Source of the DNA: Folioceros fuciformis | Lineage: Eukaryota | Assembly: GCA_049999805.1 (NCBI GenBank) | Contig: JBNGIO010005394.1 | Span: forward strand, 1 to 37,575 | Length of the DNA: 37,575 nucleotides | Reading direction: 5' to 3' | In this document: piece after piece, positions 1 through 34,963 of the stretch | How positions within the stretch are numbered: the stretch's first letter is position 1 | How the letters are laid out: each line of letters starts with the position of its first letter | Notes under the pieces: model-generated | Databases searched by the model: none | What the model was told of the DNA's origin: nothing | What the model saw: only the letters and a program-made list of their open reading frames with translations | Program-made: the position numbers and the translations under genes

Positions 1-189
1 AAAAGTTTATAATAACAAAAAAAAAGAAAAGAGATACATAGTAACTACAAAGCCTAAACCCTAAACCCTAAAAAACAAACACCGAAACGCCAAACCCAGC
101 AAAGCAAACGAAGGCAAAAAAACCCTAAAACCAAGCTTAAGGACCACAAAGATGAAACACCAACGCCGAACCCAGAACCAACCAACCCT
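1..189. repeat. Partial copy of the A-rich repeat unit also found from 5192 and 5653; contains short telomere-like AAACCCT motifs
   Basis: 1-189 (aaaagtttataataac...gagatacatagtaactacaaagcc...accaaccaaccct) aligns by eye with about 5206-5383. Similarity stops abruptly at 189/190. Confidence 0.85.
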
Positions 190-685
190 CAGCCCCTCAA
201 CCCTTCGATGGCTCCAGGATCAGCACCCACTAGTGGCTTACTTGCTAGAAAATACACGAGCTCAACTGGATGCTCGTCCACAGTTATGCCAAGACATGGG
301 TGTCATTCAGCAGGTCATTGGCACGCCATTCACCATGGATGCTGCCCAAGTGGGCAGCTATGCTAACAGACTTAGGAATTACTGGACAAATCTGGCCTCA
401 TTACCTATTTTGAACTTGGCCTTACAGGAGCAACAGCGGGATCCTACTCGACTCCTACAGGATGTGCTAGATGACAATCATACCCCTAAACCTGTCACAG
501 CCAAAGAGAGGGCCCCATGGTTTCCTACCAACACACCAGGTCAGCCAAGGAGGACCTTGCCCACAGTGGTCAGTTATCCTAGTTCCTATGCATATAGGAA
601 TAACGGCCATGGTATGCTCTTTAATGAGGATACCAAGGTGTGGGAGGAACCTATAGTGGAGGAGAGAGAACGGATAATGGGGAGC
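190..685 (+). pseudogene. DNMT3-like C5-cytosine methyltransferase fragment (motifs VI to IX) directly upstream of a Gypsy RT
   Basis: ORF 152-736 has LLEN (motif VI, ~245-253), DAAQVGSYANRLRNYWTNL (motif VIII, ~338-394; compare DNMT3A DAKEVSAAHRARYFWGNL), LPTVV in the target-recognition region and EERERIMG (motif IX, ~659-682), in the expected order. Motifs I-IV and X are not present. Confidence 0.75.
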
Positions 686-3540
686 ACATGTCTCCCAAAC
701 TTGTTTTTGCTGCGTCGAAGCTGGATTCAGGACTAGGATTGTCAGCAGCTATCAAACCTCCACCTACTGCGGAGGCCTTTGATTGGATTATGGGTCCTCA
801 GCGAGACTCAAGGTAGAAACAGCAAATTCGGGCCCTGCTTTCGCTGTACTCGGACTGTTTTGCCTTCAACAATGAAGGATTTGAAGAGGTGCAATGTTAT
901 GACGTTCAGGATCAACCTCAACACTACTGAGCCGATCTATAGGCGCAGGTACAGGTTGAGCCAATCTGAATGGGAGATTGTGGAAGCACGCTGCCAAGAG
1001 CTGTATTGGGCTGGACTGATTAGGCCTTCTAGCTCTGATTACGCAGCCGCCACCGTCCTTCCACCAAGAAGGACAGCCAGGGCTTTTGGACTGAAAAGCG
1101 AGGACTACCATCCCATCAATGCAGCAACATCACTCGATAGGTATCCTATGCCTACGCCGGAAGAGTAGTTTGACAACATTGGACAGTCCAAGTTCTTCTC
1201 TACGTTGGATCTGCGACAAGGTTTCAACCAGGTGCCAGTGGCAAAGGAGGATATACCCAAGACAGTATTTCATGGAGCTCACCAGCTGTGGGAGTGGCTG
1301 GTCATGCCTTTTGGGTTCAAGAATGCACCAGTGACCTTCCAAAGGGTCATGGACAAGGTACCTGCAAGGGCCCCTCACTTTCTGTGCTACATAGATTATG
1401 TGCTGGTCCACAGTGTGGACTTTGACACTCATCTAATCCATCTGGAGGACCTATTTCGAAGGCTGCAAAAGGCTCAGCTAACGTGCCACCCAGCCAAGTG
1501 TGAATTCACCATGGATACAGTGGCCCACCTAGGGCACAGGATCCTACCAGATGGTATAACACCACATGTTGCCAAGGCTCAGGAAATCCAGCAGATCTAG
1601 GCTCCAACCAATGTGTCTACTCTTAGGGCATTCCTAGGACTGTGCAATTACTACAGGGTCTATGTATAGACCTTTAGCAGGATTGCTAAGCCTTTGAATG
1701 ATCTATTGCGCAAGGAGATAGCTTGGGACTGGACAGACAATTGTCAAGCTACATTTGAAAGTTTGAAAAGCAAACTGATGCAGATGCCAGTTATGGCCAA
1801 GCTTGACTTTGCCAAGCCATTTGTTCTCCATACAGACTGGAGCACTTTGGGGCTGGGAGCTGTTCTAGCACAAGTGGATGCTGAAGGTTAGGAGAGGGTC
1901 ATTGCCTATGCCTCAAGAAGCATCAATAGAGCAGAAGCAAACTACTCCACCTATGAAGGGGAGTTGCTTGCAGCCGTGTGGGCAATCTATCATTTTTGGC
2001 CTTACCTGTATGGACGAAAGTTCACATTGGTAACAGATCACCAGCCCTTGAAGTGGCTGATGTCCAACACCAAGCTTAGCAGAAAGCTTGCAAGTTGGGC
2101 TATGATACTCCAGGACTATGAGTTTGAGGTGGTTCATAGGCCTGGAACTAAGCACCATAATGCAGATGTGCTGTCACGTCAGCCTAGGCAGAGTAGTGAG
2201 GACAACACTAACGCTCGCCATGACAGTGACATGGAAGAGGCACCTAATGCTGCAGCTTTGGTGACTATGCTGTGCTTGGCACAAGGTTGCACCAACAGTC
2301 GTTTCCAACCACACAAGGATGTGTGGAGTGATGAAGTCATGCTACAGTATGTGAAGACTGGACACATGGATGCCAGCCTGGATGCACACCAACAAGAGAG
2401 GGTGCAGTATAAAGTAGCTCGCTATGAGTGGAGGGATGGCTATTTGCTGAGAAGATTGGCCAACGGGACTGAACGATTGGTGCCACCACTATAGGAGCGT
2501 GCAGGACTGATTAATAGAGTACATGAAGACTTAGGTCACTTTGGTGTGAAGCGCACCTACAGCTTGCTTCTTCCCCATTTCCATTGGCATGGCATGTTCA
2601 CACAGGTGCGTGAGGAAGTAGCCAAGTGTGCTCAATGTGATAGAGTCAAGGCTTCCTTCAGCAACCCCCACTCAAAGTTACAGCCGCTGCCTATCATGGG
2701 ACTGTTTTTCAGGTGGTCCTGTGACTTGGCTAGGGAATTCCCACGCACACCGCGTGGAAATGTTTATATCATGGTCATGATTGAACATATTTCAAAGTGG
2801 GTGGAGTTGGTGGCGCTGCCAGACAAGGCATCATGCAGCACAACTCAAGCATTCTTACACAATGTGCTTAGTCGGTTTGGGAGCGGCGCCGAGTGTTTGA
2901 CTTACCAGGGGGCTGAATTCAGGGGTGAGTTCCAGGACTTGCTAGATGCTGCACTCATTGATCACCGGCGCACCAGTCGTGATCACCCTCAGGCAAATGG
3001 ATTGGCTGAGAGGATGGTGCAAACCATCAAACGTGCATTGAGGAAGCTGTGTCTCACCAAGCCTAAGACAGATTGGGACTTGGCTTTGCCATACATCGCC
3101 ATGGGCTATAGGATGAGCAGGCATGCATCACTGGCCAACTTCTCACCTTACTTTCTTCTGTTTGGGAGAGAGCCAATACCACATGTGGCCATTGCCCGAT
3201 AGATGCAGGAGGTGCTGAGCTTGGATGATCCAGCAGCATGGGCCAAGGCCATTGGAGAACGTGCAGCCTTATTCAGATAGGTGATGCCAATGGCCATGGC
3301 CAACCTCAGGATAGCCCAGCATCATGATACGCTTAGGTATGCTCACACTAGAAGTGGGAGCTTCCACCCCAAGGTCAGGAAATTTCAGCCAGGGGACTAC
3401 GTTTACCTACAGCGGCAAACGCAGGATCCTTGGAGCCTAGCACCAGCACACATGTGTTACGGGTGTGAGAGGTGCGCAAGAATGGAATACTGTTGCTGGA
3501 AGGATCAGATGAGAGGGTCACCACCGACCACATGAAGAAT
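190..3540 (+). mobile_element. Decayed Ty3/Gypsy LTR retrotransposon pol: DNMT fragment - RT - RNase H - integrase
   Basis: RT motifs PSSSDYAA, DRYPMP, DLRQGFNQ, MPFGFKNAP, YIDY (YxDD mutated). RNase H motifs LHTDWS, VTDHQPL, HHNADVLSR. Integrase HHCC (HEDLGH..CAQC), CDLA, HPQANGLAER, SPYFLLFGR. Order RT-RH-INT is Gypsy. Many in-frame stops and frameshifts; truncated near 3540. Confidence 0.95.
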
Positions 3541-3549
3541 TGGATTAGA

Positions 3550-3712
3550 ACTTGCAAGGGCTACCACTTTATTTGATTGGTTTCCAATTTGCCTCACGGT
3601 CACTTTCATGACCACCAGGCTAGCTGGAAAGCGAGTGCCCAGAAACTTTCTCTTTCACACAACCCTGCTGATTCACAGCCACCTGATCAGGTTGACGCTG
3701 TTTAGCATGACA
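3550..3712. repeat. Terminal ~160 bp of an LTR-like repeat, a direct copy of 5031-5191
   Basis: acttgcaagggctaccactttatttgattggtttcc...tttagcatgaca matches 5031-5191 (...tttagcacgaca). Both end in CA. Confidence 0.85.
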
Positions 3713-3714
3713 GT

Positions 3715-5191
3715 TGTTAGGCCATGGTGATTAATTAGGGCATCTAATTAATCAAATATGTGTAATTAGACTAATCGCATGTAAATTAGTCTAATCATAT
3801 AATTAGGTAGATCATAGATAGCTAGGTAGGGAACGTGTGATGCGTTTAGGGCTCAGAAGCATCATTGTGCGAAACGGTGGGGAGGTTACGAGCGTGGGTG
3901 GCATGGCACCGACGAAGAAGAGGAGGACTGCGGGCAACGGCCAAGAGCAAGCATGACAGATAAGCGTCAAACTTCTAGGCTTAGACACACAGTTGTTAGA
4001 AGTCCTCTCGTTGAGCCTAAGCCTGCGGTCAAGATGGCTGGCCAAGGAATTGCTTGTGAATCCACTGCTCAAAATCAAAGCGAAAGCGCTAATGAGTTGC
4101 ATCGCGGTGTGAGTATGTGTGGCTGACAATGTGAGCGTGCCACTCCGGGGCTAGGTGGAGGACTTACTAAGACTCGCAAACACAGTTGTTGAGATTGCAG
4201 GATTGGGATCTGGCTCACAAACCTCAAGATTCAGCCAAGCCAGCTCACAAGGGCCGTGGTGCTCCGTCGCGGGCATCAGCACAGCACCAGTGAACGACAA
4301 CGCTAAATGTTGAGTTGAGATTCTCAACTCAAGTGCCAGGAGAGCTCACGCACGCTGTGGTGCCCCGTCGCGGGCATCATGGCAGCACCAGTGCACGGCG
4401 GTGCTGAGCGTTGGGCTGGTAGACAACAACGAACTTGTGCGTGTGTGAGCACTAGGAGTTGGGTGGGAAAAACCCCATTGAGTGCGGTTTGAGGCCGTCC
4501 ATGAATCCGAGCTGATTGTGTGGAAGACTCGCTCACGGAGCTGCGGATGTGACTGCACGCCCTGTGATCTAAGGGGCATCCAAGCGGATCTAAACTCGTT
4601 TAGCCATGAACTGGAGCCGGCACGAGCATATTGTGTGTGGGTGTCAACGTCCGTACACACGCAAAGCTGCAGCTGCCGTTTTCAGGACTAAGGGGCTTGG
4701 GTAGACAGCACTGTGCCTGGATCGTGGCGCTGGCTTGGCCTGGGCAGGCTGTGAGCAGGGTGGTCTTGAGTCACTGACGAAGCTGTGGGGACGGTAGCAA
4801 GCACCGTCAACGCTGTTTGTGGAGGTCACCATCGGGATCAGAATCAACGTCTTCGGGACCGCCGTGGTGACGCCGACATGTGCAGTAATTCGTGTTGCGC
4901 ACGCTAGGTGTGAATGGACGGTTGAGAGTCAGCCAGTTGATGCAAACAATCGCTTTGGCTGGACATCACTTGAGAATGTTGTGAGGCTGAGACTGTGTGG
5001 TGACGCTTTTGTATATGATGCCAGATCAGGACTTGCAAGGGCTACCACTTTATTTGATTGGTTTCCAATTTGCCTCACGGTCACATTCATAACCACTTGG
5101 CTAGCTGGAAAGTGAGTGCCCAAAAACTCTCTTTCACACAACCTTGCTAATTCACAGCCAATTGATCAGGCTGGCGCTGTTTAGCACGACA
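3715..5191. mobile_element. Putative ~1.48 kb LTR (TGTT...GACA)
   Basis: Starts TGTTAG at 3715 and ends GACA at 5191. Its end is duplicated at 3550-3712. No recognisable coding content; a ~100 bp internal duplication lies at about 4255-4430. Confidence 0.5.
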
Positions 5192-5816
5192 TGGGTACAA
5201 ACTCCAAAAGTTTGTAATAACGAAAAAGAAAAGAGATACATAGTAACTACAAAGCCTAGACCCTAAAAAACAAAAACCGAAACACCAAACCCAGCAAAGC
5301 AAACGAAGGCAAAAAAACCCTAAACCAATCTTGAGGACCACAAAGATGAAACACCAACGCCGAACCCAAAACCAACCAACCCTGCCTGAAACCTGTCTGT
5401 GCACAAACTGGAAGGAGGAAGGGAAAGAAACTAAAAAACTCATAGCCCATAACTCACTCACGAATTCACAACATTAAGTAAGAAAAGAGATACATAGTAT
5501 TTCTAGAAAGTTCCTAAGGAACCACAAAGCCAAAACCCACCAAGCATGCTTGTTTCGAAAACACCATCCATCCATCCCTTGTACCGAACATGAAGGGTTG
5601 GTTTAGGCTCTTAAGAAGTGTAGCCTACACAACCAACAAACCAACAAGGGGGTGGGTACAAACTCCAAAATTTTATAATAACGAAAAAAGAAAAGAGATA
5701 CATAGTAACTACAAAGCCTAAAGCCTAAACCCTAAAAAACAAACACCGAGACGCCAAACCCAGCAAAGCAAACGAAGGCGAAAAAACCCTAAAATCCTAA
5801 AACCAAGACCCGAGGA
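5192..5816. repeat. Tandem direct repeat: 461 bp unit (5192-5652) plus partial second copy (5653-~5816)
   Basis: tgggtacaaactccaaaa...gaaaagagatacatagtaactacaaagcct starts at both 5192 and 5653. A third partial copy is at 1-189. Confidence 0.85.
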
Positions 5817-5819
5817 CGA

Positions 5820-6371
5820 ATGTTCAACTTCATTTGAGGTAACTTGAACCAGAAGGTTAAGAGTGTGGATGTGGGTATGTGAGGTGTTTGAGTTGGAAGG
5901 TGATGAGTTGAGAAAGGATTTCTTTTGAAAATTATGGAGTTTTACAGCAGTTAAGAAATTGAGGGACCCAAGGTATGATGTTCATTTATCTGAAGAATAT
6001 TTTAACTCGAGAGATAGAATCATTTTCACCAGAGAGTTTTTACTAGAGAGATTTAATTGATGTCTATCACACTTATCAACTAACACAATCTTTTTTTCCG
6101 GATTCGCTAAAGGTTTAGATGAGGAGTTCTACAATCCACTCTTGAAGATTCTTTCTCCTCTCTTCGAGTTTTCCAATCAGCAACTTTTGAAGCGAGTTTC
6201 TTCTCCCTGCGTGCTCTCACGAGCCAATAAAGTGCTTATAGGTTCTTCCTCTCTTCCCTTTGTTTGTCTAATTGTTTGTCTAAATGCGTATACAGTATCC
6301 AGTTTACTGAAATCTGTTAGAAGTTCGAGTGTCCAATCTCCTCTAAACTTTTTGAGGTAATCCCTGGACAT
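5820..6371 (-). pseudogene. Decayed ORF, possibly the N-terminal part of a Penelope-like or other non-LTR retroelement
   Basis: The frame from ATG 6371 continues past several stops and includes LNLSSKNSLVKMILSLELKYS, resembling the NLS...LxLGLKF segment upstream of Penelope-like RTs. No RT motifs are visible. Confidence 0.25.
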
Positions 6372-6447: not shown

Positions 6448-6647
6448 AGCTAAGAAAACTCACGTTATGTAGCTGAGAAACTCTTGTTATGTAGCAAAGA
6501 AAACTCACGTTCTGTAGCAAAGAAAACTCACGTTCTGTAGCAAAGAAAACTCACGTTATGTAGCAAAGAAAACTCACGCTATGTAGCAAAGAAAACTCAC
6601 GCTGTGTAGCAAAGAAAACTCACGCTATGTAGCAAAGAAAACTCACG
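6448..6647. repeat. 23-bp minisatellite, about 9 copies
   Basis: Unit gtagcaaagaaaactcacg(t/c)t(a/c/g)t repeated head to tail with no spacers. Confidence 0.95.
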
Positions 6648-7013
6648 GGAGGAGGTGACACATGGTACAAGTATTCTAAACAACCACTGTAGACGTACAT
6701 GATCGTAACCAGCTAACCATATGTTGAAAGATGATCAGATACATCCACAAGGACCTCCTGTAAATACAAATATGAAACAAAATCTTTCAAATTATGTCAC
6801 AGCCAGGAGCACCAATGCTTGTGAAGTACCAAGACACGTCCTACTTTATCTCGTACACCTTGGGGCATGGACCAGGCATAGGCTAGCTCCAGCACAACAC
6901 ACCCACGCCAGAAGGAAAGGACTCTTCGAATTGCTGCTGGTGTGACTAGCAGGCAGACTTTCTCATCCAGGTCTGATCATGGTGGTCGCACACACCGGCC
7001 CACGGCCCAAGTA

Positions 7014-10000
7014 TCAAACCACCGTTTCAGACGATTTCACTAGCTGCATTAGGGTCAGTAGCACCTCCACCCTGTGCATGTCCCTTGAGGCCTGCATCTC
7101 ACCACGGACCAACCAAGTCTAGAATTACCCACAGTGCTCCGGTGCCAACCCCCACCAAAGTTACTATCCTCACAAAGGTATTGACAAGGAGCATCCAGGA
7201 CCATGTCACATGCATAGCCATCTTAGACCTCACCTCTACAACGAACTGTGCCCGAATTTTGTCACAACAGACTTCCATGAAGCCCTTAACGATGGTCAGC
7301 CCAAGACCTCGGATCTGATCAGCCAATTGTAGCAAAAGTCCCCGCTTTTCACACATCATCTGTCCGCACCACAGATTAACCCCCAACATCAGCCCTCGTC
7401 AGAAAGCAACCTTCTGTCCCCCATCTCCTTCCCTCTCGCCCTATAAAGTTGGAGAAGGATACTTGCCTCCACCAGCATTTGGCGTGGCTGACTCAAGTTT
7501 TGGACGACAACCTCCCTGCCATCATCCACGGTCAACTTTTGGCTGCCGTTCTGGTCACCCTGCACTTCATCCTGACCACTGGAACAAATCACACCAACTG
7601 ACAAACACACGCTAAAGCTGTGCGGTAAGATGCTGGAAAAGGACAACCTAACCTTCCCCAAAGGCTGTTCCCTACAATTTACCTTGAACCTGCCCTCTAT
7701 ACGTGCAACAGATTGCAGGAGATGGACATGTTTGATGGTCCTTTCCAATAGCGCATCTATGCTACACTGTACACAGCCAACACAAAGGTCACTTTTTCAG
7801 TTGCAGAAGCCTTCCAGTCAAACCTCAAAGCTAGTGGTCCAACCTTCTTCGAATTTGGTACTATCTCTCGCAGTTCTTTCACACGGTCTTGTATTTGCTG
7901 TCGGTCCTTAGGCCGTGGCCTTGGTGCTTCATTGGGCCTGCACCTCTTCCTACAGGCCTTTCCAGCTGATGACTGATCAAGCTGCTTTGTCACCGGTGCA
8001 TCCATGGTTGTCTCATCGTTTAGCAGAGGCGGCCCTGGGCACCAGCTGCTCCCACTCTCGATGCGCGTCTGATCCTGTACCACCTCCTGCAGGGCCTCTC
8101 GACACGACTCATCCATTGTCTTATTCAAGTGATGTCCCTTGAATGGAGGGCATGGTAGTGATGAGTAAGTCCCTGGACTATGCGGGACAGATGCCTGCAT
8201 CATAGTATTCCCTGAAGTAGAGGGAGGATCATTAACCAGCACACGGACAAACTTCACAGGTCAACAATCGTCACACAGTGGCAGCGTGTGTGACCAATGG
8301 CACCAGCGCCGTGTCAACAGTTACTTTTAAAAACATGAATACGAACCAACCAACGGCATCTCTAAGCTTGTTACAAGTCACATAATTCTTGGGTCTCCAG
8401 AAGGAACAGTTTGTCAAACAATCCAGAGGTACGACAGCTATACAGCAGAATGATACAAAGCACACCACACATGCATTACACTCCAACGACAGAACAGGAA
8501 AGAAAGATGCAAAAACGTTAAGATATGGTAGACTCTAGCTCTCAAAAAGATATTCAAGCTGTGCACTGGGAAGGGGAGCAAACCATTTGCAACCGTTGTA
8601 CAGGCTCCTGACACCATGATATGCTGGCTATGAATATTTGAATTTTCACAGCTGGGCACCCATGATAGGCATGAAGGCTGAATTGAATGCTGAGTTTGGG
8701 TCCCAAGGACTGACAACAGTTCACCTGCACGGATGTAGTACAAACCAAGGTCAACTTTGCAGAAAGGGAGGATTGGCGCCATGTAACTTCAGAAGTTCAG
8801 AAGGTCAGTCACCTGAGCTGACATGAAGGCCATCAGACCCCACAAACTGATTTTCTGAAAGTAACCTTGGGGTGCCAGTCAAGCAGGGTTCACCAAACAC
8901 TCCCTGCATATTTTTTGGCTGTTGTGACACCTCATCTCGAAGTCCAGCCACTCTTTGGGTCTTGTAGGAACGGTCCTCCAAATTCTTTTGACATTCTACA
9001 TTTGCCATAATCTGCTGCAGTCTGCGGCTCCCTCCCTGCTGGTGCAAACGTTCCTGGCAAGTGGCATTTCAGTATATATGGACTGGCGACATTTTCACAA
9101 ACTACCGAGGTTTGAAATTCAGCTCTGCTGTGAAGGGCTCACCTCACTTTGCGTGGCACATAGCATCATGTTCAGAGGACAGGGTGGTCCCCTAAGTCCC
9201 ATAGGAGAAATCGACTTGAAATCAGGATCTGTAGCAACAGAAGCTGATCTGACTGGCATGGGTTGGGCTCTTGCAGCCACATGGGGCAGTGCAGTTGGCA
9301 CAGGGAGACCTTGAGATCTGGTACCAGTGTTAGACGGGGATGGCAAACCTTCCGCCAAATCTTTAGAAGATAGGAACAAGCTCTTGACATGAGCCACAAG
9401 ATCCAGATCCTCCATAACCTGACGGCCCACAAGAAAATAGAGAGTCAACGCTACTGTATTCGTACCAAAAAAAAAAGAACCCGTCTAAGCCAAAACATGA
9501 AATACCCAACTATTTCTGTGGAGCCCAGCTGGATTACGCCCTGTGAGACGGCGATTACAGCAATGGTCTGCACGAGGAGAAGCTAGTAAGCAAAACATCG
9601 TAAACTAATGCATCGTGAGAGCGAGGTATAGCTGTCAAAGAAAACGACCGCCAGTCTAGAAGGCATCCCGCTTACCTTGATACCGGCTGCGAACTGATTT
9701 TGCCATCCAGAATGATACTGCGAGCATCAAAGATGTACAATTTCGAAGATAAAGCATCAGGGGAAAGAATAATAAAAGAAAGGAGAAGAAGAGAAAGAGA
9801 ACAAGGACGTAAGACATGGCCACCCTACCTCCATGTTTGGACGGCCAAATGGGCGGGAGCCACCAGCTCCAATAACCCCTCCCTTGTCTCCCCCGCCGAA
9901 GACCCACTGATGCTTGGCAGTGAGAGCCACCCGCCCGATAATTCTGAATGCAACACACTAGTAGTGAGTGAGGAGCACGTTAAGTGAAAGGCAGGGTGTG

Positions 10001-12504: not shown

Positions 12505-15500
12505 TGTCAGCCTCAAAAATACATCGGAGCTCTACTCCGATGGAACACCGGAGCGTTTTTCCAGAGTCCCTCCAAATTTCAACGAACTAAGGGAACTAAG
12601 GTAAAAGTATCAGTTAAGTCGAGTCTTCGGAGTAACCCGCATGCCGGAGCTCACTCCGTCGAATAAGGCATCAAACTGACTGTCAGGATAGTTTGATCAA
12701 GAACAGGTACAGTAACAATCATGTAGATGGTGGGGCATAACCGCCACAGACGGTTGTAGGCGTGCCAGAATTGGAGTGTAAACATTTACTCTCGCCTTAC
12801 TCTTGCTTATGTTTGCTCCCGTTCAACCCCATTTGTAGATACAAGGAGGACTCTTGTGCTCTGCCTACTTTGCCGACAGCAGGCTGGCTGGCGGCCGGTA
12901 GGTAGGCGGTTGCACAGGCCTGAGCCAGACAAGGGCTGGCCACAAGTGCGAGATCTTGGTCGGCAGCTTAGCCAACTGGCTGTAGGAGGATCCAGGCGGC
13001 TAATCGGATTCGGCAAGATAGGCCAGGAGCAGCTGATGGCGGGATCCTAGGAGCTAGGCCAGGGCGGATCAGTGGCTAGGCAACCAGCAGACAAGTGCGC
13101 AACCGGTCCTCAGTCGGCCTGGCCGAAGAAGTAGACCGGTAGGATCCGGGGCGGTGGGATGGATCTGGTTGAATCTAGGGCAGGCAGCGCCTGGCCTCTG
13201 GCCAGGGGCGGATCCTACAAGGTAGCTGGCGGCGGATCCTGGAGAGGAAGGCCTGGACGGGTCGCCAAGCTAGGTGGTGTGGCTGTCTGATCCCAACTAG
13301 CTAGAGGCCAGGCGGCGGACCCAGCAAGCAGGGTGGCGCAAGATCTAGGCAACGACGCTGAGCCTAGACGACCGGAGCGGTTTGAGGCAAGCCAGCCTGG
13401 CGGGTCGGGGGCCGGATCTAGGGATGGGTAGCAAGTAGGATCCCAACAAGTCGTTGGCTAAGGCTGGCTGGCTAGCAAGCCCCAGGCAGCTTGGCTGGAT
13501 CCAGACACTATGAGAGGATCGGGATGCCAGGCCGCCGGAGTGCGTGATTGCAACCGGGGTGGAGTGGCTAATCAGCATCCCTTCAAGCTCATAGCCCAAG
13601 GGTTTGGCAGCCTTGTGTTTACAGCGCAACGCCTGGGTTCAACCTGTCTTGGGGAAGGTCTACGAGCTACTCAAGCCTCTGTCTGCCATGCCAGTTCGTG
13701 TCCATGGATCATGTTATTACCTCACTGACCCGAGAAAAATGAGAGTGTCGTGCAATCTCTCGTGGGCGCTCATGTCGTCTTGACAAACCTGCATGACCAC
13801 CTATGTGGAGGCAAACATGAGGCTATGTGGTGAAGTCTTCGCATTTGTGGGACTGTTGGAGTGGGGAGGGGAGCTCGAAGAGGACTTGTTACATTCCTCC
13901 ACAGGGTACGGGGCAAGGATATGAAGCTAAAGGGTTGTGTCTAGATTACAGCTGCAGGGCGGATCGTCTTGGCCAGCCAGATGGCATAATTAGCATTGAG
14001 GTTTCTATCCGCAAGTAGCTCGTCCGGTTGCTCGCAGGCGGAAAGCCTAATGTTAATCATGGCAACAATGGATTGTGGAATGTCACTTCTGGGTTCGCCA
14101 TGCTTACAAGGCTACCTCAAGAGTACAAGATGAGGTAGCTCTGGTGGACCAAGGGGGTCTCCCTAGCCAGCAGGATGGGGGTGGGAGGACTTGAAGAAGG
14201 TGGATGCCCTGAGCAAGGTATAGGATGATTTGAGGGAGGTGAGGGAAGTTGTGGAGATGCACTGATGATTTGGGTAGGGGGGTAACCAGTAATGAGTGTC
14301 AAAGGGACAGCTGGCAACCCCTCATAGGTCGGCATTACGATTAGATTTAGGTCGAAGTTAGGGTTAGGGTTTTGGCAAGCGTGAGAAGGATTATCGAGCG
14401 TGTGACTAATGCTAATCCTATTAGACAGTGATGGGGGTTCTTGGCCAAGATAGTATAAGGGGCCAGACCAGTCATTGAGGAGGGGGCAGTCTTTTGGTGT
14501 GATTCCCCTTGTCTCTTGTGTGCAGGCTGCCGGATTAGGACACTGATTTAGCGTGAAAGTGCACCTTGGGCTTGATCCCCTTACCACTAGGGGAACGTGG
14601 CAGATCCTTAGGCTACCAAGATGTGTGTGGCCAGATCCGCAGTTGCTGACTCTTTTTGCATGCTAGCTGAAGTGCCTTGACGTCCCTAGGTAGGTTTCCA
14701 AGGTAAGAATTGCCAGGCTGTGAGCTAAGGAGGCTATCCTACCCAAGACTTCACATCTTTGCCTTAAGGCTGCAAGTAGGGGAGGTTGCTGTGTTACAAA
14801 TTCTAGGGTTGGATAGTTTTGTTGCACATTTAAGGGTGCTGAAGATTGGAGATTGGAGCTGAAGGTTGGAGATTGGCATTAGGGTAGGAGTTTCTATTTT
14901 CAGCCGCTGAGGTAGCTGGTGCTAAGAATAAATCTACGGAGCTAGATCTAACTATTGTAGTTGCTGTTAAGTTTAGGTAGGGGCTGATAGGTAGGATCCT
15001 GTTAGTGCGTTAGGGTGGTTTAATTGATTGCCTTGGCAGGAGATCACTCCCTTGGGAACAAATCTCAAGACTGCAACGACAGTAAGAGCTAATGTGGACC
15101 TTTTGGTGATTTTTGGGTTGAAGGAATCACTCCACATGGAGGTTCAACCAACGAGGCATTTAGCAGCTTGCCTCTCGAGGCCTAGAATTCCACCAAAACA
15201 TCCCTGACCTTCTCACGCCGCCCTGCCCTAGGGTTCCACGCTCCTCAATATCCCTAACCCCGAAAGGAACCCAGGCCCGTTACCTTTCGACCACAATCAC
15301 TACTTAGACCCTAACCATCCTACCTAGCCCAATTCCCTAATTATTTCCCCATAAACTTCAACCAAAACAAAAATTCCCCATAAACTTCAACCAAAACAAA
15401 AAAAAACAATCTCTATCATTTTTCTAGGGAATCTATCTGCCATGTGGACTCCACACTCCAGCACTTGGACTGCTTCCTTGCTTGCAGCCTTGCTCAAATT

Positions 15501-20769: not shown

Positions 20770-22518
20770 ATGTACAAGAACCAGCTTCAGGAGCTAGCTC
20801 AGAGGAGCTGTTGCAATCTTCCGGCCTATGCTTGCATCCGAGAGGGTCCTGACCATGCCCCACGCTTCAAGGCCACCGTGACCTTCAATGGGGAGACGTT
20901 CGAAAGTCCCACATACTGCAGCACTTTGCGCCAAGCCGAGCATGCTGCTGCCGAAGTGGCCCTCAATACCCTGTCCCGGAGGGGTCCATCGCAATCCTTG
21001 GCTGCAAGAATTCTGGTGGGTGTTGCCCCACCGTCCCACTCGTCTCCTGCCTTTGCTCGCACTTGACTTTCTGGCTGCCAATGTGCAACGGAGGTTGGTG
21101 GTGTTGGTGCTGGGCGCAGGACGAGACGGGGGTTTGCAAAAATCTACTCCAGGAGACTGCTCAACGGGCTGGAGTTTCCCTTCCTGTCTACACCACCACG
21201 CGCTCGGGACCAGGGCATTTGCCTGTGTTCACCTGCACGGTTGAGGTCTCTGGGATGGCATTTTCTGGAGAAGCCGCCAAGACGAAGAAGCAAGCAGAGA
21301 AGAATGCTGCCCTCACTGCGTGGTCTGCTCTCAAGCAGTGTAAGCGCGCCATACTCACCTCCTCCTTCAAGCGTGTAGCTCCCTGTGTTTCTTCGGTGTG
21401 TTGGAATTTGTTTGTTTTATTGTCATGGGTACTGTTTCTTCCTTTCGTGAATCAAAGTTTGCGAGCTCTGTGCGCTCCTTGTTTATGAATACCTTGCAGG
21501 CTCATCTGTAGTTGTGCATTGCTTTCATACACAGATTTAGGTAGGAATGTGATGCGTATTTGATGAAGAAATTGTGAATGTGTCTGTATGTGAATCACAT
21601 GCAGTTGTAAGTCAAGGGCGGTCTTCATCACAAGCTTTGGATACGGAGGTGAGTGAAGAGCAAGAGCAGAACACAATTGCGAGGGCTCTTGCGTATGTCC
21701 ACAGCAAAGAGGAGATGGGCACTTCTACGGGTGTGGAGTGTAGCCCTCTTCAGCAGCAGCTTGCTCCTTGGCAGCATCCGCTAGCCTCAAAGGCTCCACC
21801 TTCGAGGTCAAAAGTGCTGTCTGTTCACGAGGGAGGTGGGCCGGGTGTAACACGGCAGTATCGCAGCAGGGCAGCCTGGTTGCACGGCGATGCAGGACCT
21901 GTGGGCCCCATGTCGGCCACAGGCTCAATGTCGGCCAACAACCAACAGCATTCCAAGAATATGGTAGTGAAGAGTGGGCAGAGCTGCCAGTCGCTTATCA
22001 CCCGGCCTCATCACTCTGTAGTGTGTGGATCGGGCTCCTCACTGGCCAGGGAAGTTGTGGGCGCCAACAGGCATATGGGTCGTATAAATGCCATGGCAGG
22101 TCGCAGCGTGGAAGCTTGTGGAAGCAAAGATATCGGTGAAGGGTCTCTGTCCATGGAAGCACATTTGAAGGATGACGACGAGTGGCTTCAGCCGGACACT
22201 CGTAAATCAAGCAGTATCGGAAGTAGTGGTATGATTGAATCCTCCAATGTGAGCAGACATTCGCTCTGTGGCTCCTACAACCCCATGATGTGGGCTGGTG
22301 GTGGTAGTTCGGACTGGTGGAATTGGCAGACATCCAACCTATCAGCTGCTCACCGTGGGAACATGCATGTTGGCTCTAGTTTAGCTCCACCCGTGTGTGT
22401 GCGGTCCATGGTAACTGTCCATGCCACACCTCCAAGAGTAGTTGCGGATGAAACGGAGAGCATTTCCTGCGAAGGGGAACAAGCTACTAGGCAGGTGCTT
22501 TGTCAGCTGCGGCTTTGA
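20770..22518 (+). CDS. DRB2: Double-stranded RNA-binding protein, DRB2/3/5 clade (two dsRBDs plus C-terminal region), 3 coding exons
   Basis: Exon 20770-21015: MYKNQLQELAQRSC.NLPAYACIREGPDHAPRFKATV...LAARIL. Exon 21120-21339: DETGVCKNLLQETAQR...GPGHLPVFTCTVE..AKTKKQAEKNAA. Exon 21605-22518 ends APPVCVRSMV...LCQLRL. GT-AG introns are in phase. Clade-level call; exact orthologue uncertain. Confidence 0.93.
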
Positions 22519-24079
22519 TGATGCTGGTATGCATGTGACAGATTCATTCGTTGCACTGACCATGAAATCGAGATGGTTTTTGTTCAGTGCTTGCCACCTT
22601 TTTAAAGATTGCTGCCAACAGGTTTGAGCAACTATTTTGAGTTTATACATGTAAACCTAGTGTGCACCTGAAAGTGCGCGCGGCTTTTACTTCTGACCAT
22701 GTAAGTGACTAGTTGATTGTTTTTGTTTCATGGGGTTGTGACAATCTTGGCCATCTCTCCTGAGCTTATTCAGCCAGCCAGCCAGCCGCTTGCGCCTCTC
22801 GAATTCTTAAGCAAGATGAGGGCTCGTGGCAGCAGAATGCATACTCTAGATAGTGTGTATGTAGTTTGTGGGTGTGTGTGTGTGGGGTGTTTTGTCTATG
22901 AGGACACGAGGTTGGGGATAGTGAAGTGTGTGAGACGAGCAAAGCTGGGATGGTAGTTGATGGACCTCAGTTTTTTGTTTCGTGTACAATACATGCACGA
23001 AAGTGGAATGAAAACGTTTCATCTTCTAGGGACTGACATCATCAGTGAATGCGTAGGAGAACTGTCTGTATATGTATGTCCACATGAGCCTCCTGAACCG
23101 GGTGTGGAGTAATGCGCCACAGAAGCAGACTTGATGCTGGGTGGCATATACACCGCGGGAACAGAGGAGTACCTAGTCCAAGGAAGTAGTGACTGAAGAT
23201 ACATAATATGCGTAGGTTGTTAGGGAGGAGGAGGTGTAAGAATATGGAGGACGATTCTTTTGGAGGTAGTAGGCCAGAGGAGGTGGTGCTTCCATGTACT
23301 GGCGGTGGTTCAGCACCGTGCACAACATTCATGTAGGATGCTGCCGTCGCTGGCTCTCTTCCAGCTCTGGCTCTTCGTGTTGCTGGCTCTGCCTGCTTGT
23401 CAGGGTTTGTTGTGCTTCTAGCCGGTCCCTGCATTCTAGCAAGCGGGTGCTGTTTCGATGCGCTCTGCACGATATTGTTGAAACTCCGAGGCACCTTGGA
23501 GCCGCGCACCACTGTCGGGCCCCCAAGCTCGCTACTTTGGGGCCGATGAGACGTAGAGCAAGCACGACTTGGCCGGTGGCACCAAACCTCGTGTGGGGCT
23601 TGGACCGTCGGTTCGGGCGGGAGACGGGCTTTGCGGAAAATTTTGGGTGTAGGTAACGTTTGTGGTTGGAGAGCGAAACGTTTCTACACTCGTCAAGACG
23701 ACGCAGTCCGGATGCGCTCGCGCTAGCCTGAGTGTGGCCTGCAGACACGACTGCCTGGGCTTCTCCGCCTACAGTATACAGTCAGCCTCTGGTCCATCGA
23801 TAGGGCAGGACGCAGCACGACGATGGTAATGACTCTTCATGTATGCCTGGACATTGCAATCTGGAAAGGAATTATAATCTGTTGTCTGAACAGAGAGTTC
23901 CCTTCTGTTTGCTGTCGACGTCGGTCGCAATCTTTGAAGTGTGGCGGTGAGCGGCAGAGGAAGAGGAGAATGGATGCTCCATGAAGGAAGCCGATAGGTT
24001 ATTTGGTACAAGTGTGGTTGGAGATGGTGGTATCATCAACATCAGGAAGGGAGCAGGTAGCAGTTAGACGAAGGGGGAA

Positions 24080-26335
24080 ATGCTCCTGGCAGAGCAGCTG
24101 CCGTTGCTGTTGCGGCTGCAGCCATGCTCCCCTTCGCCGTCAGCACCTGCAGGATTGGCCGTCAAGACAACAACAATGGCCTGCAGTAGCAACAGCAGCA
24201 GGGAACGGCAGCACGTGCTGTGGCACCACTTCTTTGCCGACCCCAGTCAGTGGTGGGACAACAGGGCGGAGAAGAAGGGTCCGAGCCATCCGGACTTCAA
24301 GCACAAGGGCTCCAAGGAGGCCTTATGGCTGGACAATGCCAGTAAGCCCGAATGGGTGGATTTGCAGCTGGCCGTGTGGGATGCCCGCATGAGACTGACC
24401 GCAGAGGGTGTAGAGAGGTTGAGACAACTTTGTGAGCAGGGCCGCCCGTTGCAGGAGGCTGTGGAAGCGCTGGAGCTCCTGGTGCAGCAGGGGAGTTGCT
24501 CTTGCGCTCTCACCACCAATTCCCTCTTCTACCCAGTGCTTAAGATGTGCAGGCGTGGAACAGGTGCGGAGTTTGATGAGCAGGATCTGGGCTTGGCCAG
24601 GCGAGTCCACGCTCTTGCGGTGGCCACCGGCTTTCACGCGGACGCGTTTCTGGCCAACCACATCATCTCCATGTATGCGTCACATGGGGCTGTGGGCGAG
24701 GCGACGAGCGTCTTCACCGAGGTCACCGAGCCCAATGTCTACATGTGGGCATCCATCATCTGGGCGCATGCGCGACACGGGCAGCCCCAGCGTGCCATCC
24801 AGCTGTATCGGGACATGCGGCAAACTGGACTAGTGAAGCCGGACTCGCGTACCTTTGTGGGTGTTCTCACGGCTTGTGCCTCTGCGCAGGACCTGTGGGC
24901 CGGCAAGGAGGTGCATGTCCATATTCAGCAGCAGCAGCAGAATCAGCAGGAGCAGGAGCTGGATGACTTCGTCTCCTCCAGCTTGGTGCATATGTATGCC
25001 AAATGCGGCAGCCTGGAGGATGCTCGCAAGGTGTTCGACCAGCTGTCCACTAAAAATGTGGTGACATGGAATGCCATGATCGCAGGGTATGCCAGAGTAG
25101 GGATGGGCCGGCAGGCGCTGGACCTGTATGCAGGGATGCAGATGCAGGGCATGACTAGGGCAGCAGCAGCAGCTGCAGTAGGTGATCAGGTGACACTGGC
25201 CTGCCTCCTCCGAGCATGCGCCACCGTGGGAGCTGTTCAGCATGGGAAGCAGCTTCACTCACAGATCCGCGAGACAGGCCTGGAAGGAGACGCCGTGGTG
25301 GGCACTTCCCTGATCGACATGTATTGCAAGTGCGGGAGCTTGGAGGATGCTCGAAGGGTCTTTGATGCACTGCCCAACAGAGATGTGGTGGCATGGAATG
25401 CCATGCTGAACGGGTACGCTGAGCATGGGCTGGCGGGCATGGCCTTGGAGTGCTTCGGGCAACTGCAAATGCAGGTGGAGCAAGGAGGCAGCATCCGCCC
25501 GGATGCAGCAACCTTCGTTTCTGTCCTGGCTGCCTGCGGTCATGCTGGTCTTGTGCAGCAGGGCCAGGTCTACTTCCGGATGATGGTGGAGGAGCACAGC
25601 ATCCAGCCCACTGATCTCCACTATAACTGCATGGTCCATCTCCTGGCCCGGTCTGGCCTGCTGGAGGAGGCGGAAAGCATGTTGCTCACCACGTCCCTTG
25701 GCGACCCCGTGGTGGGCTGGACTGCATTGCTCACCGCTTGCAGAAGCTTTGGGGATGTGGAGCGAGGAAGGCGATGCTTCGAGCGTCTTGTGGAACGGGA
25801 GGCTCACGATGCCAGCTGTTACGTGCTGTTAGGCAACATCTACGCCAATGCAGGCAGGTGGGAGGATGTGGGCAGAATTGAGAGGCAGAGGAAGGAATCT
25901 GGAGCCAGGAAGTTAGCTGCCACGGCCTGCATCGAGGTGGAGGAAGAGATACACGAGTTTACTGTCGGGGACGTGAGGTTCAGCAGGCCCAACATCATCT
26001 TCAAGCTCAAAAGCGTGAATGCGAGGCTGACGGAGGAAGGAGGACACGTTCCCCACACGGAATTAGTACTGAAGGCTGTGTCTGAGCGGGAGAAGAAGGA
26101 TGCCCTGTGCGGGCATGCCGAGAAGCTGGCCTTAGCCTACGGTCTGCTGAACACTCCGGAGGGCACTCCTCTGCTCGTCACGAAGAATCTGCGCATGTGC
26201 AGCGACTGCCACAGCTCCACCCAGATCATGTCACGACTGGAGAGGCGGGAGATTATTGTGAGAGATGCTCATCGGGTGCACCGTTTCCTGGATGGATCTT
26301 GTTCCTGCGACGACCGCCGGATCCTCATTCCTTGA
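24080..26335 (+). CDS. Intronless PLS-class PPR protein: likely transit peptide - PDF (OSB-type) motif - 11 PPR motifs - E1/E2 - DYW:KP-type domain; candidate U-to-C organellar editing factor
   Basis: 751 aa intact ORF. PDF motif at aa ~47-97 (WWDNR..HPDFKHK..ALWL..PEWV). PPR array L-S-P-L-S-P-L-S-P2-L2-S2. DYW domain: KLAATACIEV, HAEKLA, NLRMCSDCH, HRFLDGSCSCDDRR. Confidence 0.95.
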   Translation: MLLAEQLPLLLRLQPCSPSPSAPAGLAVKTTTMACSSNSSRERQHVLWHHFFADPSQWWDNRAEKKGPSHPDFKHKGSKEALWLDNASKPEWVDLQLAVWDARMRLTAEGVERLRQLCEQGRPLQEAVEALELLVQQGSCSCALTTNSLFYPVLKMCRRGTGAEFDEQDLGLARRVHALAVATGFHADAFLANHIISMYASHGAVGEATSVFTEVTEPNVYMWASIIWAHARHGQPQRAIQLYRDMRQTGLVKPDSRTFVGVLTACASAQDLWAGKEVHVHIQQQQQNQQEQELDDFVSSSLVHMYAKCGSLEDARKVFDQLSTKNVVTWNAMIAGYARVGMGRQALDLYAGMQMQGMTRAAAAAAVGDQVTLACLLRACATVGAVQHGKQLHSQIRETGLEGDAVVGTSLIDMYCKCGSLEDARRVFDALPNRDVVAWNAMLNGYAEHGLAGMALECFGQLQMQVEQGGSIRPDAATFVSVLAACGHAGLVQQGQVYFRMMVEEHSIQPTDLHYNCMVHLLARSGLLEEAESMLLTTSLGDPVVGWTALLTACRSFGDVERGRRCFERLVEREAHDASCYVLLGNIYANAGRWEDVGRIERQRKESGARKLAATACIEVEEEIHEFTVGDVRFSRPNIIFKLKSVNARLTEEGGHVPHTELVLKAVSEREKKDALCGHAEKLALAYGLLNTPEGTPLLVTKNLRMCSDCHSSTQIMSRLERREIIVRDAHRVHRFLDGSCSCDDRRILIP

Positions 26336-27089: not shown

Positions 27090-29652
27090 ATGGCCACAGT
27101 ATGGCTATCGATGTGTGCATAGGGATTGTACTAGGAGCTCCCGCTCACCTCATTGTAGGGAGCCAACCCCCGGCAACCAAGGCCTTCAGTTGCAGCAGTC
27201 CAAGGAGCTCGGCATTCCCGCTCCCCAAAACGACGCGTGTGGGTGAGAACGGGTCTCCCAGCGATGCCGATCGTTACTAGGAGCACGAGCGCTTGTGGCA
27301 ACAAGTTTTTCTGGACCCTACCCTGTGGTGGGACAACAGACGACATGAGAAGAGCTCTCGCTCTCCTGACTTCCGGCGTATGGGGTCTGGCGAGGGGCTG
27401 TGGTTAGACAACATGTTCAACCAGCTTGGGTGGATGACCACCTGCTTTCCTCCGGGCTGCAGATAGTTCAAGGTGCTTCTCCTTGCAAGCCGAGACCTCG
27501 GGATATCCTTGAACCTGGTGGGCGTGGATGATCTGTAGTGGGCTCCATGTGCAGCAGTGTAAGGAACTCAACACCTTGCACTCCCGGGAAAATGTGTGGG
27601 TGGGGACGGGTTTTAGGGTTCAAGCCAGCTTGGGTTGACAGCACCTTGTCTCCTTGGATGCGCAGATGGGTCCCTCTCCTTCCAGGTCGACCTCCCCGGG
27701 TAAGCCTGAACTTGGCAGGCGTGAAGGATCGGACATGGATGTCGTCACGGCTGGAACGGTGAGCCTGTTATGTTATCAAGGAAAGCTTTCTGACGCCGTT
27801 GGATCCCTGGAATCTCTGGCGCAAACACACACTCTGTTATTTCTCGGACTCTGCTTTACACTGTGCTGAAACTGCGTTACAGCTAATAAGGATTTGGTTT
27901 TGGGGCGAGGGGTCCATGATCTCGCCATCAAACTGGGATACGAGTCGAGTGCGTACTTGGGGAACCATATCTTGCGCATGTATGCATCTGGAGGTAGGCT
28001 AGAGGAGGCCATGGGTGTGCTCATCAGAGTGAGGAAACCGGACGCCTTCATGTGCTCTTCCATCATCTTCGCGTACGCGAAGCATGGGAAACCTAGTGGG
28101 GCTGTAAAACTGTACCATGAGATGTGTAGGTCGGGAGTGAAGGCGGATGCTCACGTCTTTGTAGCTGCCCTTCAAGCTTGTGCATTGGCCGCCGACTCGG
28201 AATCTGGCAGAAAAGTACACGGTGATGTAGTGCACAGTGGCATTCCTACTAATCTATTTGTTGGCAATTGCCTGGTGGACATGTATGCAAAATGTGGTGA
28301 AATGAAAGATGCACGCCAGGTTTTTGACAGCATGGCCATAAAGGATGTGGTGACATGGACGGTGCTGATCGCCGGGTATGCACAGCAAGGGCTCAGCCGA
28401 GGGGCGCTAGTTGTGTATGGACTGATGGAGGAGGCGGGCCTCATTTTGCCTGACCGTGTTACCTTCGCTTGCCTTCTGAAGTGTGCAAGCACCTGTGCCT
28501 TACACACGGGCGTGCAACTGCACTCACAGATAGTCCAAAGGGGCCTGCTGGAAGACGTTATGGTGGGCAACTGCCTGGTGGACATGCACGCAAAATGTGG
28601 CAAACTAGAATATGTTCGCCAGGTATTTGACAGTATGGACACCAAGGATGTGGTGAGTTGGACCGCCCTCATTGCTGGGTATGCACAGCAAGGACTTGGC
28701 CAAGAGGCGCTTGCTATGTATGAACAAATGGAGGAGGCGGGTGGCGTGGACCGCCCTGATACCCGGATATGGTACTTGTGATGAAGGTCTCAAGGCACTA
28801 GCCTGTTTTGAGGAAATGTTAGGTGCTGGTGTTCAGCCTAATGATGCTACTTTTACTTGCCTTCTTGTAGCATGCAGTCATCGGGGACTTGTCCAAGAGG
28901 GTCGCAAGTACTTTTATTCCATGGCGGACCAGCATGGTATCAAACCTACTATTCAGCATTACACCTGCATGATCGATCTTCTTGGGCGTGCTGGCCATTT
29001 AGACGACGCAGAGAAGATGCTGTCATCCCTCGAGGGCGAAAGGAATGTTGTAGGCTTGATGTGTTTGTTGAACGCCTGCAAGAGTTACGGGGATACAGAG
29101 AGGGCAATGTGGTGTTTTGAAAGCATTGTCAGCCTGGACCGTCAGAAGGCTCCCGCCTATGTTCTCATGGCCAATGCGTATGCAGATGCAGGTAGGTGGG
29201 CCGATGTAGACAAGATTGAAACACTAAGGAAGGCAGCAGGAGCTAACAAGGAACCTGCAGTGGCTACCATTGAGGTGAAGAAGGAAGTACACAGATTTCT
29301 GGTGGGAGAAAGGAGAGAGGATATTGCACTAAAGGTGGAGAGCACGAGTGCCCGTTTGGAGAAGGAAGGAGGTCTTGTACCTCACACAAAATTGGTGTTG
29401 AAGCCACTGTGTGCGAGGGGTAAAGAAGAAATGTTTTGTGGTCATGCTGAGAAACTAGCTCTGGCCTTCGGTCTCTTGAACATTCCGAGTGGGACGCCTC
29501 TGGTGGTAACTAAGAACCTACTCGTGTACAGTGACTGCCACAGTTCCACGGAGATAATGTCGAGGCTTGAGAAGAGGGACTTTGCTGTAAGGGATAGGTT
29601 CCGTGTTCATCGATTCACAGCTGGTTGTTGCAGTTGTAACTGCCAACCGTGA
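27090..29652 (+). pseudogene. Disrupted paralogous PDF-PPR-DYW:KP gene
   Basis: Several TAG stops in the 5' part. PDF motif LWQQVFLDPTLWWDNR..SPDFRR..GLWLD at ~27293-27415. Frameshifts near 27420, 27640, 27830-27880 and 28740. PPR array in ORFs 27894-28781 and 28672-29652. DYW domain KEPAVATIEV, HAEKLA, CxxC changed to YSDC, ends CSCNCQP. Start position is tentative. Confidence 0.85.
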
Positions 29653-34804: not shown

Positions 34805-34963
34805 TGTTCGGGTGTAGAAACCCTAACATGATTAAATATACGATTAAGAGTTAGGTTAACTAACCAATCGACACCTTACAATTTTGCTTCTTAAACTCTT
34901 ATTTGTTAATTAAATGTTGTCTTTGTGAAATATGCTTCCGCAAGTTTTTCATGGTATCAGAGC
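34805..34963 (+). mobile_element. 5' LTR (34805-34951) and tRNA-Met PBS (34952-34963) of a Copia inserted into the minus-strand Copia
   Basis: TG at 34805 exactly where the integrase-region frame ends; ...TTTTCA followed by TGGTATCAGAGC. Confidence 0.8.

Follow-up and report, generated by a model that had tools for sequence, protein, structure and literature searches.

The stretch of DNA analyzed here, referred to as the window, covers positions 1 to 37,575 of contig JBNGIO010005394.1 from Folioceros fuciformis (NCBI GenBank assembly GCA_049999805.1). Near its left end, at 190-5191, lies a degenerate retroelement in which part of a DNA methyltransferase (DNMT) domain precedes a reverse transcriptase (RT), an RNase H and an integrase, followed by terminal repeats. 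We read it, with a probability of about 0.88, as the 3' half of an old, inactive Ty3/Gypsy-type copy from a family that has its own DNMT3-like domain. The features of the element and of its left flank are given below, where P numbers denote related proteins and L numbers related loci.

1-189, no strand assigned: host flank, a low-copy local repeat (X) that recurs at 5206-5383 (89.9%) and 5667-5794 (94.6% over 130 nt)
203-682, + strand: C-terminal half of a C5 cytosine methyltransferase domain of DNMT3-like type, as judged from phmmer, the P0152 alignment and a family profile
683-765, + strand: deletion scar, 83 nt replacing ~104 residues; the reading frame changes here and a stop stands at 734-736 (P0152 alignment)
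766-870, + strand: pre-RT linker in frame 1, TAEAFDWIMGPQ...CFAFN (P0152 residues 293-327, 48.6%, E 4e-8)
869-1600, + strand: Ty3/Gypsy-type reverse transcriptase (RVT_1 at 1175-1543, PF00078, 2.5e-24)
1670-2170, + strand: RNase H (RT_RNaseH at 1805-2119; PF17917, 6.4e-38; PF17919, 3.6e-35)
2495-3202, + strand: integrase (H2C2 zinc domain at 2498-2653, PF17921, 2.3e-13; DDE core at 2711-2989, PF00665, 5.4e-9)
3203-3542, + strand: C-terminal part of the integrase, with stops at 3278-3280 and 3533-3535 and a frame change near 3430
3543-3712, + strand: terminal repeat B1, 90.0% identical to 5024-5191 over 170 nt
3713-5023, + strand: putative terminal repeat A2 between B1 and B2, by analogy with L019, L020, L028 and L058
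5024-5191, + strand: terminal repeat B2, a direct repeat of B1 and the right end of the element, where contig depth drops

The methyltransferase segment lies in an open stretch at 65-736 (+ strand, frame 2) that reads ...LRWLQDQHPLVAYLLENT...MDAAQVGSYANRLRNYWTNL...EERERIMG. The original prediction, made from the letters of the sequence, had recognized motifs VI, VIII and IX of C5 cytosine methyltransferases here, and all three were found in order, in one frame of the + strand. Motif VI is LLENT at 242-256, with its Glu at 248-250 (ENT is a variant of E-N-V that is frequent among relatives); motif VIII is DAAQVGSYANRLRNYWTNL at 338-394, which ends in ANRLRNYWTNL and includes the R-x-R; and motif IX is EERERIMG at 659-682. 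The same prediction had noted that the catalytic P-C motif and motif X are missing from this copy, which holds. Homology begins at 203, just past the site of motif IV/V, and neither motif I (F-x-G-x-G, S-adenosylmethionine binding) nor motif IV (P-C, catalytic Cys) is present in the window copy; relatives read LSLFSGIGS or LELFGGIG at the former and GWPCQG or GWECQG at the latter. Motif X (G-N), where relatives carry LGRAMD or LGRGMD, has been deleted. Between ERIMG and the pre-RT linker the relatives have ~130 residues, whereas the window has only 83 nt: residues 161-292 of P0152 are without a counterpart, and what was lost at 683-765 corresponds to motif X and the subsequent hydrophobic stretch.

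The segment at 203-682 shares 45.6% identity with residues 1-160 of P0152. When the fragment was searched with phmmer against 1.84 billion representative proteins, 577 matches were returned at E<=1e-3 and 319 at E<=1e-10, the best at 4.5e-31, and the long matches are mostly retroelement polyproteins. Of 18 matches scanned with Pfam, 15 contain PF00145 at E<=0.01, 11 of these 15 above the 22-bit cutoff (P0277 scores 60 bits and P0282 54 bits). Using a family profile built from 11 relatives plus the window fragment, we searched the PDB. Human and mouse DNMT3A (6e-21) and DNMT3B (1e-18) were matched, as was DNMT3C, with tobacco DRM (6e-12), M.HhaI (5e-10) and Arabidopsis DRM2 (2e-9) weaker. In bits, DNMT3A/3C/3B score 66-78, DRM 39-48 and HhaI 41, and DNMT1 is missing from the best 60 PDB matches. 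The term 'DNMT3-like' in the original prediction is justified at the level of profile similarity. The best structural-database relatives of the family profile are the cellular DNMT3A/3B/3C and DRM2, and the family's catalytic motifs follow the unpermuted order I, IV, VI, VIII, IX, X, unlike those of the permuted DRM. The family differs from the cellular DNMT3 and DRM2 enzymes in that PWWP, ADD and UBA are absent, motif IV is mostly ECQ, and the domain is embedded in a retroelement polyprotein.

RT homology starts at ~869, roughly 180 bp 3' of the DNMT segment, close to the ~200 bp originally proposed. The frame is not intact between the two: the linker at 766-870 is read in frame 1, whereas the DNMT segment before it and the RT from ~869 onward are read in frame 2. 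The RT part of the family profile matches the Ty3 RT at 1.8e-39, and the order of RT, RNase H and DDE integrase, together with this Ty3-like RT, is that of Ty3/Gypsy elements. The closest long relative, P0289, matches 980-3427 with 60.7% identity over 821 residues; its last ~75 residues, PHD finger included, find no match, and no PHD finger is present in the window. Neither gag nor an aspartic protease was found in the window copy, while relatives P0282 and L058 have both. Missing 5' of 203, with the cut at ~190, are the repeat A1, gag, the protease and DNMT motifs I-IV. An Rfam scan of the window gave no match.

The decay anticipated by the original prediction is plain: the copy has lost its 5' part, carries an internal deletion and frameshifts, and has nine in-frame stops in frame 2, starting at 734, 1166, 1598, 1667, 1889, 2492, 3200, 3278 and 3533. 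Two of these belong to the RT (1166-1168, 1598-1600), two to the RNase H (1667-1669, 1889-1891) and two to the first integrase stretch (2492-2494, 3200-3202). The conserved RMCG of the RT is gone through small deletions private to the window copy, other copies having extra letters at 1063 and 1101. The copy at 190-5191 is dead, being truncated, frameshifted and interrupted by nine stops, and it makes nothing.

Is the methyltransferase a native part of this element? Among the best 150 DNMT matches, 84 are multi-domain proteins, and in all of them the DNMT stands after RT/RNase H or before the integrase; none has it before the RT. The full order RT-RNase H (RH)-DNMT-integrase (INT) is seen in 28 of the 84. 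A rearrangement that had moved the DNMT upstream of the RT was considered and dropped once junction searches revealed proteins with the DNMT first. With window 191-1600 as the junction query, its stops written as X, eight mid-length proteins were found that have a DNMT and then an RT, and a second, 'longer' search returned whole polyproteins of the same order. At least 18 relatives are DNMT-first, among them 18 of the 67 proteins that show both a DNMT and RT-RH. In P0282 (2318 residues) a zf-CCHC at 517 and a protease at 784-876 are followed by PF00145 at 966-1208, and then by RT, RNase H and integrase, which begin at 1412, 1629 and 1885. A single high-scoring segment pair, in one frame, joins residues 1078-2199 of P0282 to window 200-3427 (39.9% over 1138 columns). 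P0281, from Closterium sp. NIES-53, has the same domain order. L058 encodes CCHC-protease (PR)-DNMT-RT-RH-INT in one frame with X at stops, and its motif I is F-G-G-I-G.

Phylogenies support the same arrangement. In a tree of the DNMT domain the window groups with P0152, P0271 and P0151 (support 87), all DNMT-first, and a 47-row clade (support 99) contains 47 of the 49 RT-first proteins. Trees of RT-RNase H place the window likewise. Because the DNMT and RT trees agree, the DNMT has travelled with the RT for a long time and is no stray host fragment. The original prediction had assigned the segment to the Gypsy element, and the homologies bear this out: the DNMT segment is a native part of the retrotransposon pol and has co-diverged with the RT. 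The alternative, a piece of a host DNMT3 gene lying by chance beside an ordinary Gypsy element, is extremely improbable. The window does show only half a domain, out of frame with the RT over 683-870. However, it is colinear with whole polyproteins of identical order, its copy depth is equally high in DNMT and RT bins, the two trees are concordant, and neither PWWP/ADD (DNMT1-/DNMT3-type host domains) nor introns flank the segment. As seen in its relatives, the polyprotein of the window's family comprises a gag zinc knuckle, aspartic protease, DNMT3-like domain, RT, RNase H and integrase, with a PHD finger in the closest relatives.

The window and P0157 (65% identity) form a pair in the 49-row IQ-TREE tree of RT-RNase H, inside a 10-row clade (support 99) that also contains two proteins of the liverwort Calypogeia fissa and the P0151 family. 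C. fissa provides the nearest named RT relatives, and identity between the window and its nearest relatives is 53-65%. One of the liverwort proteins, P0153, is 84% identical to P0151 residues 402-820. The C. fissa models (P0153, P0154) begin just 3' of the expected DNMT site, P0153 at a Met just upstream of the RT, and with a start next to the RT the P0153 gene model is silent on the DNMT. In public gene sets P0153 and P0154, like P0281, P0283, P0284 and P0166 from Closterium, are filed as 'unnamed protein product', and the Closterium entries include full DNMT-RT polyproteins.

A single RT clade (support 95), apart from animal and oomycete Gypsy elements, unites all rows with a clear DNMT save a Tetraselmis group (P0292, P0300); it also contains RT-only models in which a DNMT is not assessable. 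For P0292, P0293 and P0295 (Tetraselmis) and P0300, phmmer flags a DNMT-like stretch 5' of the RT, with no PF00145 on record, and these proteins fall outside the main DNMT-Gypsy clade. Retroelement DNMTs occur in two polyprotein orders, PR-DNMT-RT-RH-INT and RT-RH-DNMT-INT-PHD, which form distinct groups in the RT tree as well as in the DNMT tree; named hosts of the latter include Chlamydomonas eustigma and Cymbomonas tetramitiformis. The 35-45% identity between the DNMTs of the two orders suggests a single capture of the DNMT followed by a move within Pol.

In IQ-TREE the deep branches leading to the Klebsormidium, Closterium, land-plant and RT-first clades form a polytomy. Of the phylogenetic comparison suggested by the original prediction, the concordance of RT and DNMT placements stands, with Klebsormidium falling within the polytomy. 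Inheritance by vertical descent within streptophytes would be the simpler account. Horizontal transfer into land plants from an alga of the streptophyte line, rather than inheritance since before land plants arose, strikes us as distinctly unlikely, though there are hints in its favor: the land-plant clade is not sister to the elements of Closterium (Zygnematophyceae), contrary to what the host tree predicts, FastTree sets it beside the Klebsormidium clade (support 82), and among named sources the land-plant lineage is seen only in C. fissa and the window. Against these stand the IQ-TREE polytomy, under which nothing rejects vertical descent, the 53-65% identity to nearest relatives, which speaks for long residence, and the thin sampling of named plant genomes.

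The ends of the element were assessed by comparing 80 loci of the closest DNMT-first family, taken from metagenome contigs where at least 468 stretches encode relatives. Four of these loci (L019, L020, L028, L058) show a complete layout of A1, coding region, B1, A2 and B2; in L058, A1 at 5196-5488 precedes the coding region, followed by B1 at 14228-14391, A2 at 14394-14686 and B2 at 14687-14850. Related loci with this arrangement have no B copy upstream of A1. In the window, two identical long terminal repeats (LTRs) around the coding region were not found; what is seen of the A-coding-B-A-B layout is the B1-A2-B2 part at the 3' end, with no 5' end and A1 lost. By analogy, 3713-5023 would be A2, its 5' twin A1 having gone with the 5' part of the element, and the termini of the element are best described as direct repeats of a split kind (A1-coding-B1-A2-B2) rather than ordinary LTRs. 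The putative segment A of the window measures 1311 bp, vs. ~290-335 bp in the related metagenome loci. Split direct repeats like those of DIRS/PAT elements occur in elements with a DDE integrase (L019, L020, L028, L058; e.g. L058:5196-14850).

The limits of the element are supported because contig depth shifts at them: depth is ~11 at 1-200, 72-118 in the adjoining bin, 72-236 across 201-3400 and 61-324 across 3601-5000, falls from 77 to 14 at the right end, and is at most 14 just past 5200. An earlier idea, in which repeats X and Y were halves of an LTR, was dropped, as X has single-copy depth and B1/B2 flank a second repeat, A, in related loci. The element probably inserted into a short local repeat and then lost its 5' half by deletion. 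The 10% divergence between B1 and B2 (Jukes-Cantor ~0.11) shows that the insertion is old. Within an A-rich stretch of host repeat X there are CCCTAAA motifs resembling plant telomeres (50-135, 5255-5330, 5720-5800).

Beyond the element, the window contains the following.

6455-6670, no strand assigned: tandem array of a 23-bp unit, ~9 copies (AAAACTCACGTTCTGTAGCAAAG)
7757-8260, - strand: exon with an LHW-type bHLH domain (PF23176, 7.5e-11), from an intron-containing host gene
20853-21488, + strand: exon with a double-stranded RNA-binding motif (PF00035, 6.8e-16), from an intron-containing host gene
24068-26335, + strand: intronless PPR-E-DYW gene
27870-29652, + strand: intronless PPR-E-DYW gene over two overlapping frames (27870-28781, 28657-29652)
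34171-34875, - strand: Copia-type fragment, retroviral SH3-like integrase tail
35964-36620, + strand: Copia-type fragment, copia gag

The second PPR-E-DYW gene, 1.5 kb from the first, is either frameshifted or a pseudogene. Where the best matches of the PPR gene have a named source, it is always a land plant (Diphasiastrum, Cryptomeria, Ginkgo, Calypogeia, ferns, Selaginella), none above ~52% identity, and no PPR-DYW genes were found in the 891 kb of related metagenome loci. The PPR-DYW and LHW-bHLH genes agree with the embryophyte host of the original prediction, and judging by these neighbors the element's host is a land plant.

In two sequencing runs with one organism label, 76-77% of the words sampled from 150-3750 recur. 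Contigs from the two runs were compared with 1-6000 at 80% likeness: 542 and 495 match, mostly at 80-95% identity, with every bin covered. The element is a diverged multi-copy family in its host. One contig, from a run with the same species label, reaches leftward past 206 by at least 255 nt, and the 30 letters at its end encode GLFRDLVQVL, as in relatives between motifs IV and VI; another passes to the right of 678 and reads GFHTHSTAAP, the continuation missing from the window. Since these contigs extend past 206 and 678, fuller copies exist.

Could the element instead come from an algal contaminant or a mis-joined contig? Its named relatives are mostly algae (Closterium, Klebsormidium, Chlamydomonas eustigma, Cymbomonas), and yet land-plant genes lie 4-25 kb off on the same sequence, the two same-label runs contain 76-77% of the words of 150-3750 and their contigs cover every bin of 1-6000, and the closest named RTs are from a liverwort. 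We consider contamination very improbable.

The literature describes retrotransposons bearing a cytosine methyltransferase from dinoflagellates and from a single charophyte (de Mendoza et al., 2018; PMC5890265). KnitGypsy-Dnmt3 of Klebsormidium nitens has an intronless Dnmt3-type domain in Pol together with the Gypsy domain set, and repeats of the form A-coding region-B-A-B are described for SymbioDIRS-Dnmt3 and, in the legend of Fig. 4c, for KnitGypsy-Dnmt3 (PMC5890265). The window element resembles KnitGypsy-Dnmt3 in having a Dnmt3 domain within the Pol of an element with Gypsy domains, in the preserved B1-A2-B2 part of a putative A-coding-B-A-B repeat layout and in its streptophyte host, and Klebsormidium retrotransposon RTs (P0207, P0313) share its 95%-supported clade. 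It differs in that its host is a land plant and in that the window copy is truncated and dead. The kinship to the published DNMT-Gypsy type claimed by the original prediction agrees with the repeat layout as far as it is preserved. SymbioDIRS-Dnmt3 of Symbiodinium likewise combines a Dnmt3-type domain in Pol with A-coding-B-A-B repeats, and in that paper it is the only class of retrotransposon DNMT with de novo CG methylation shown. However, it has a tyrosine recombinase and a DIRS-type RT, whereas in the window the integrase is of the DDE type, with an H2C2 zinc domain, and the RT is Ty3-like; no tyrosine recombinase, the hallmark of DIRS/PAT/Ngaro elements, was seen in the window, where an integrase zinc domain and rve core are found instead.

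Two other groups of Gypsy elements invite comparison. The RT-RH-DNMT-INT elements (metagenome, Chlamydomonas eustigma, Cymbomonas tetramitiformis) carry a homologous DNMT with 35-45% identity to the window, belong to the same RT super-clade, and end in a PHD finger in common with the window's closest relatives, but their DNMT lies between RNase H and integrase, in contrast to the PR-DNMT-RT-RH-INT order of the window's family. Plant Ty3/Gypsy LTR elements (chromoviruses, Tat, Athila) have RT, RNase H and integrase domains of the same families in the same arrangement. Unlike them, the window's family adds a DNMT and has split direct repeats in place of two identical LTRs, and in the window's relatives a PHD finger replaces the chromodomain. 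Angiosperm Gypsy proteins are distant matches of the window, at 33-39% identity.

A number of results weigh against the readings given above. The C5 methyltransferase profile that the original prediction looked for is found in the relatives, which carry PF00145, and through the family profile, which hits DNMT3A; the window fragment alone gave no match to Pfam at E<=1 and, against the PDB, no DNMT, its sole match being an unrelated protein at E 1. The putative assignment of the fragment as a methyltransferase thus rests on its relatives. With A1 absent from the window, the split-repeat reading of 3713-5023 is one by analogy. The B pair occurs in only 10 of the 41 related loci with at least 2.6 kb downstream, and a strict count finds the full layout in only 3 of the 17 with enough flanking DNA on both sides (the fourth full-layout locus has less upstream DNA than that count requires); most related loci are too decayed or short to show it. 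The window element is of the same kind as KnitGypsy-Dnmt3, and its putative kinship to that element is drawn from architecture, repeat layout and RT clade only. No run listed as containing the stretch is recorded as RNA; the contigs that reveal fuller copies come from a run guessed to be RNA, whose copies are diverged, with no bearing on expression. As to enzymatic activity, none of the 71 related loci covering the DNMT has a stop-free DNMT region, Glu and not Pro precedes the catalytic Cys in most relatives (ECQ), and the KnitGypsy-Dnmt3 domain gave no detected methylation in yeast (PMC5890265).

In intact family members, the DNMT borne by Pol would methylate cytosines of the element's own new or newly integrated DNA. 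We hold such self-methylation tentatively, at slightly less than even odds. The stops in the DNMT of related loci are CAG/CAA/TGG/CGA-to-stop changes, scattered like those in the rest of the element. Motif I, the catalytic Cys, the motif VI Glu and the R-x-R of motif VIII are kept by most relatives. Constraint on the DNMT of the metagenome relatives is indicated by the median pairwise ratio of nonsynonymous to synonymous substitution rates (dN/dS; 366-368 pairs), which is 0.42 for the DNMT, 0.35 for the RT, 0.43 for RNase H and 0.60 for the linker, a measure that cannot tell catalysis from binding. SymbioDIRS-Dnmt3 domains methylated CG (PMC5890265), and catalysis in this Gypsy lineage is unproven because the Klebsormidium domain showed no methylation in yeast.

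The DNMT-like domain of this Gypsy lineage might instead no longer be an enzyme but a conserved module without catalysis, which could, for instance, bind DNA or chromatin when the element integrates. The frequency of ECQ favors this: it is found in 14 of the 19 DNMT-first and 23 of the 53 RT-first proteins that could be assessed, and overall motif IV is ECQ in 66 and PCQ in 39 of 137 assessable proteins. The inactivity of the Klebsormidium domain in yeast points the same way, but its authors called that result inconclusive because human DNMT3B also failed (PMC5890265), and the retention of the four catalytic features by most relatives speaks for an enzyme. We rate a non-catalytic role as unlikely, and as less probable than self-methylation.

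Our literature searches, which covered neither subscription journals nor supplementary files and are not proof of absence, returned no report of a methyltransferase-carrying retrotransposon in a land plant. The window copy is the fossil of an element whose kind is already known, in a host group for which these searches brought up no published report. The locus shows the DNMT-Gypsy lineage as a multi-copy family in an embryophyte genome, while the window copy itself is only a fossil, and its interest is moderate: it is a lead to a genome-wide survey rather than a functional locus. Plants, strong in methylation genetics, could be used to test the age of the Gypsy-DNMT3 partnership, the activity of the enzyme, and the value of self-methylation to the transposon. 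A broader proposal, which we regard as doubtful, is that land plants, at least F. fuciformis and leafy liverworts, harbor a transcribed and possibly mobile Gypsy element with its own DNMT3-type enzyme, DIRS-like split repeats and a DDE integrase. Under that proposal, a de novo methyltransferase carried by a transposon would act in embryophyte nuclei, where it could mark the copies newly made by its element, affect host DNA as well, or have swapped DNMT3 genes with the host lineage.

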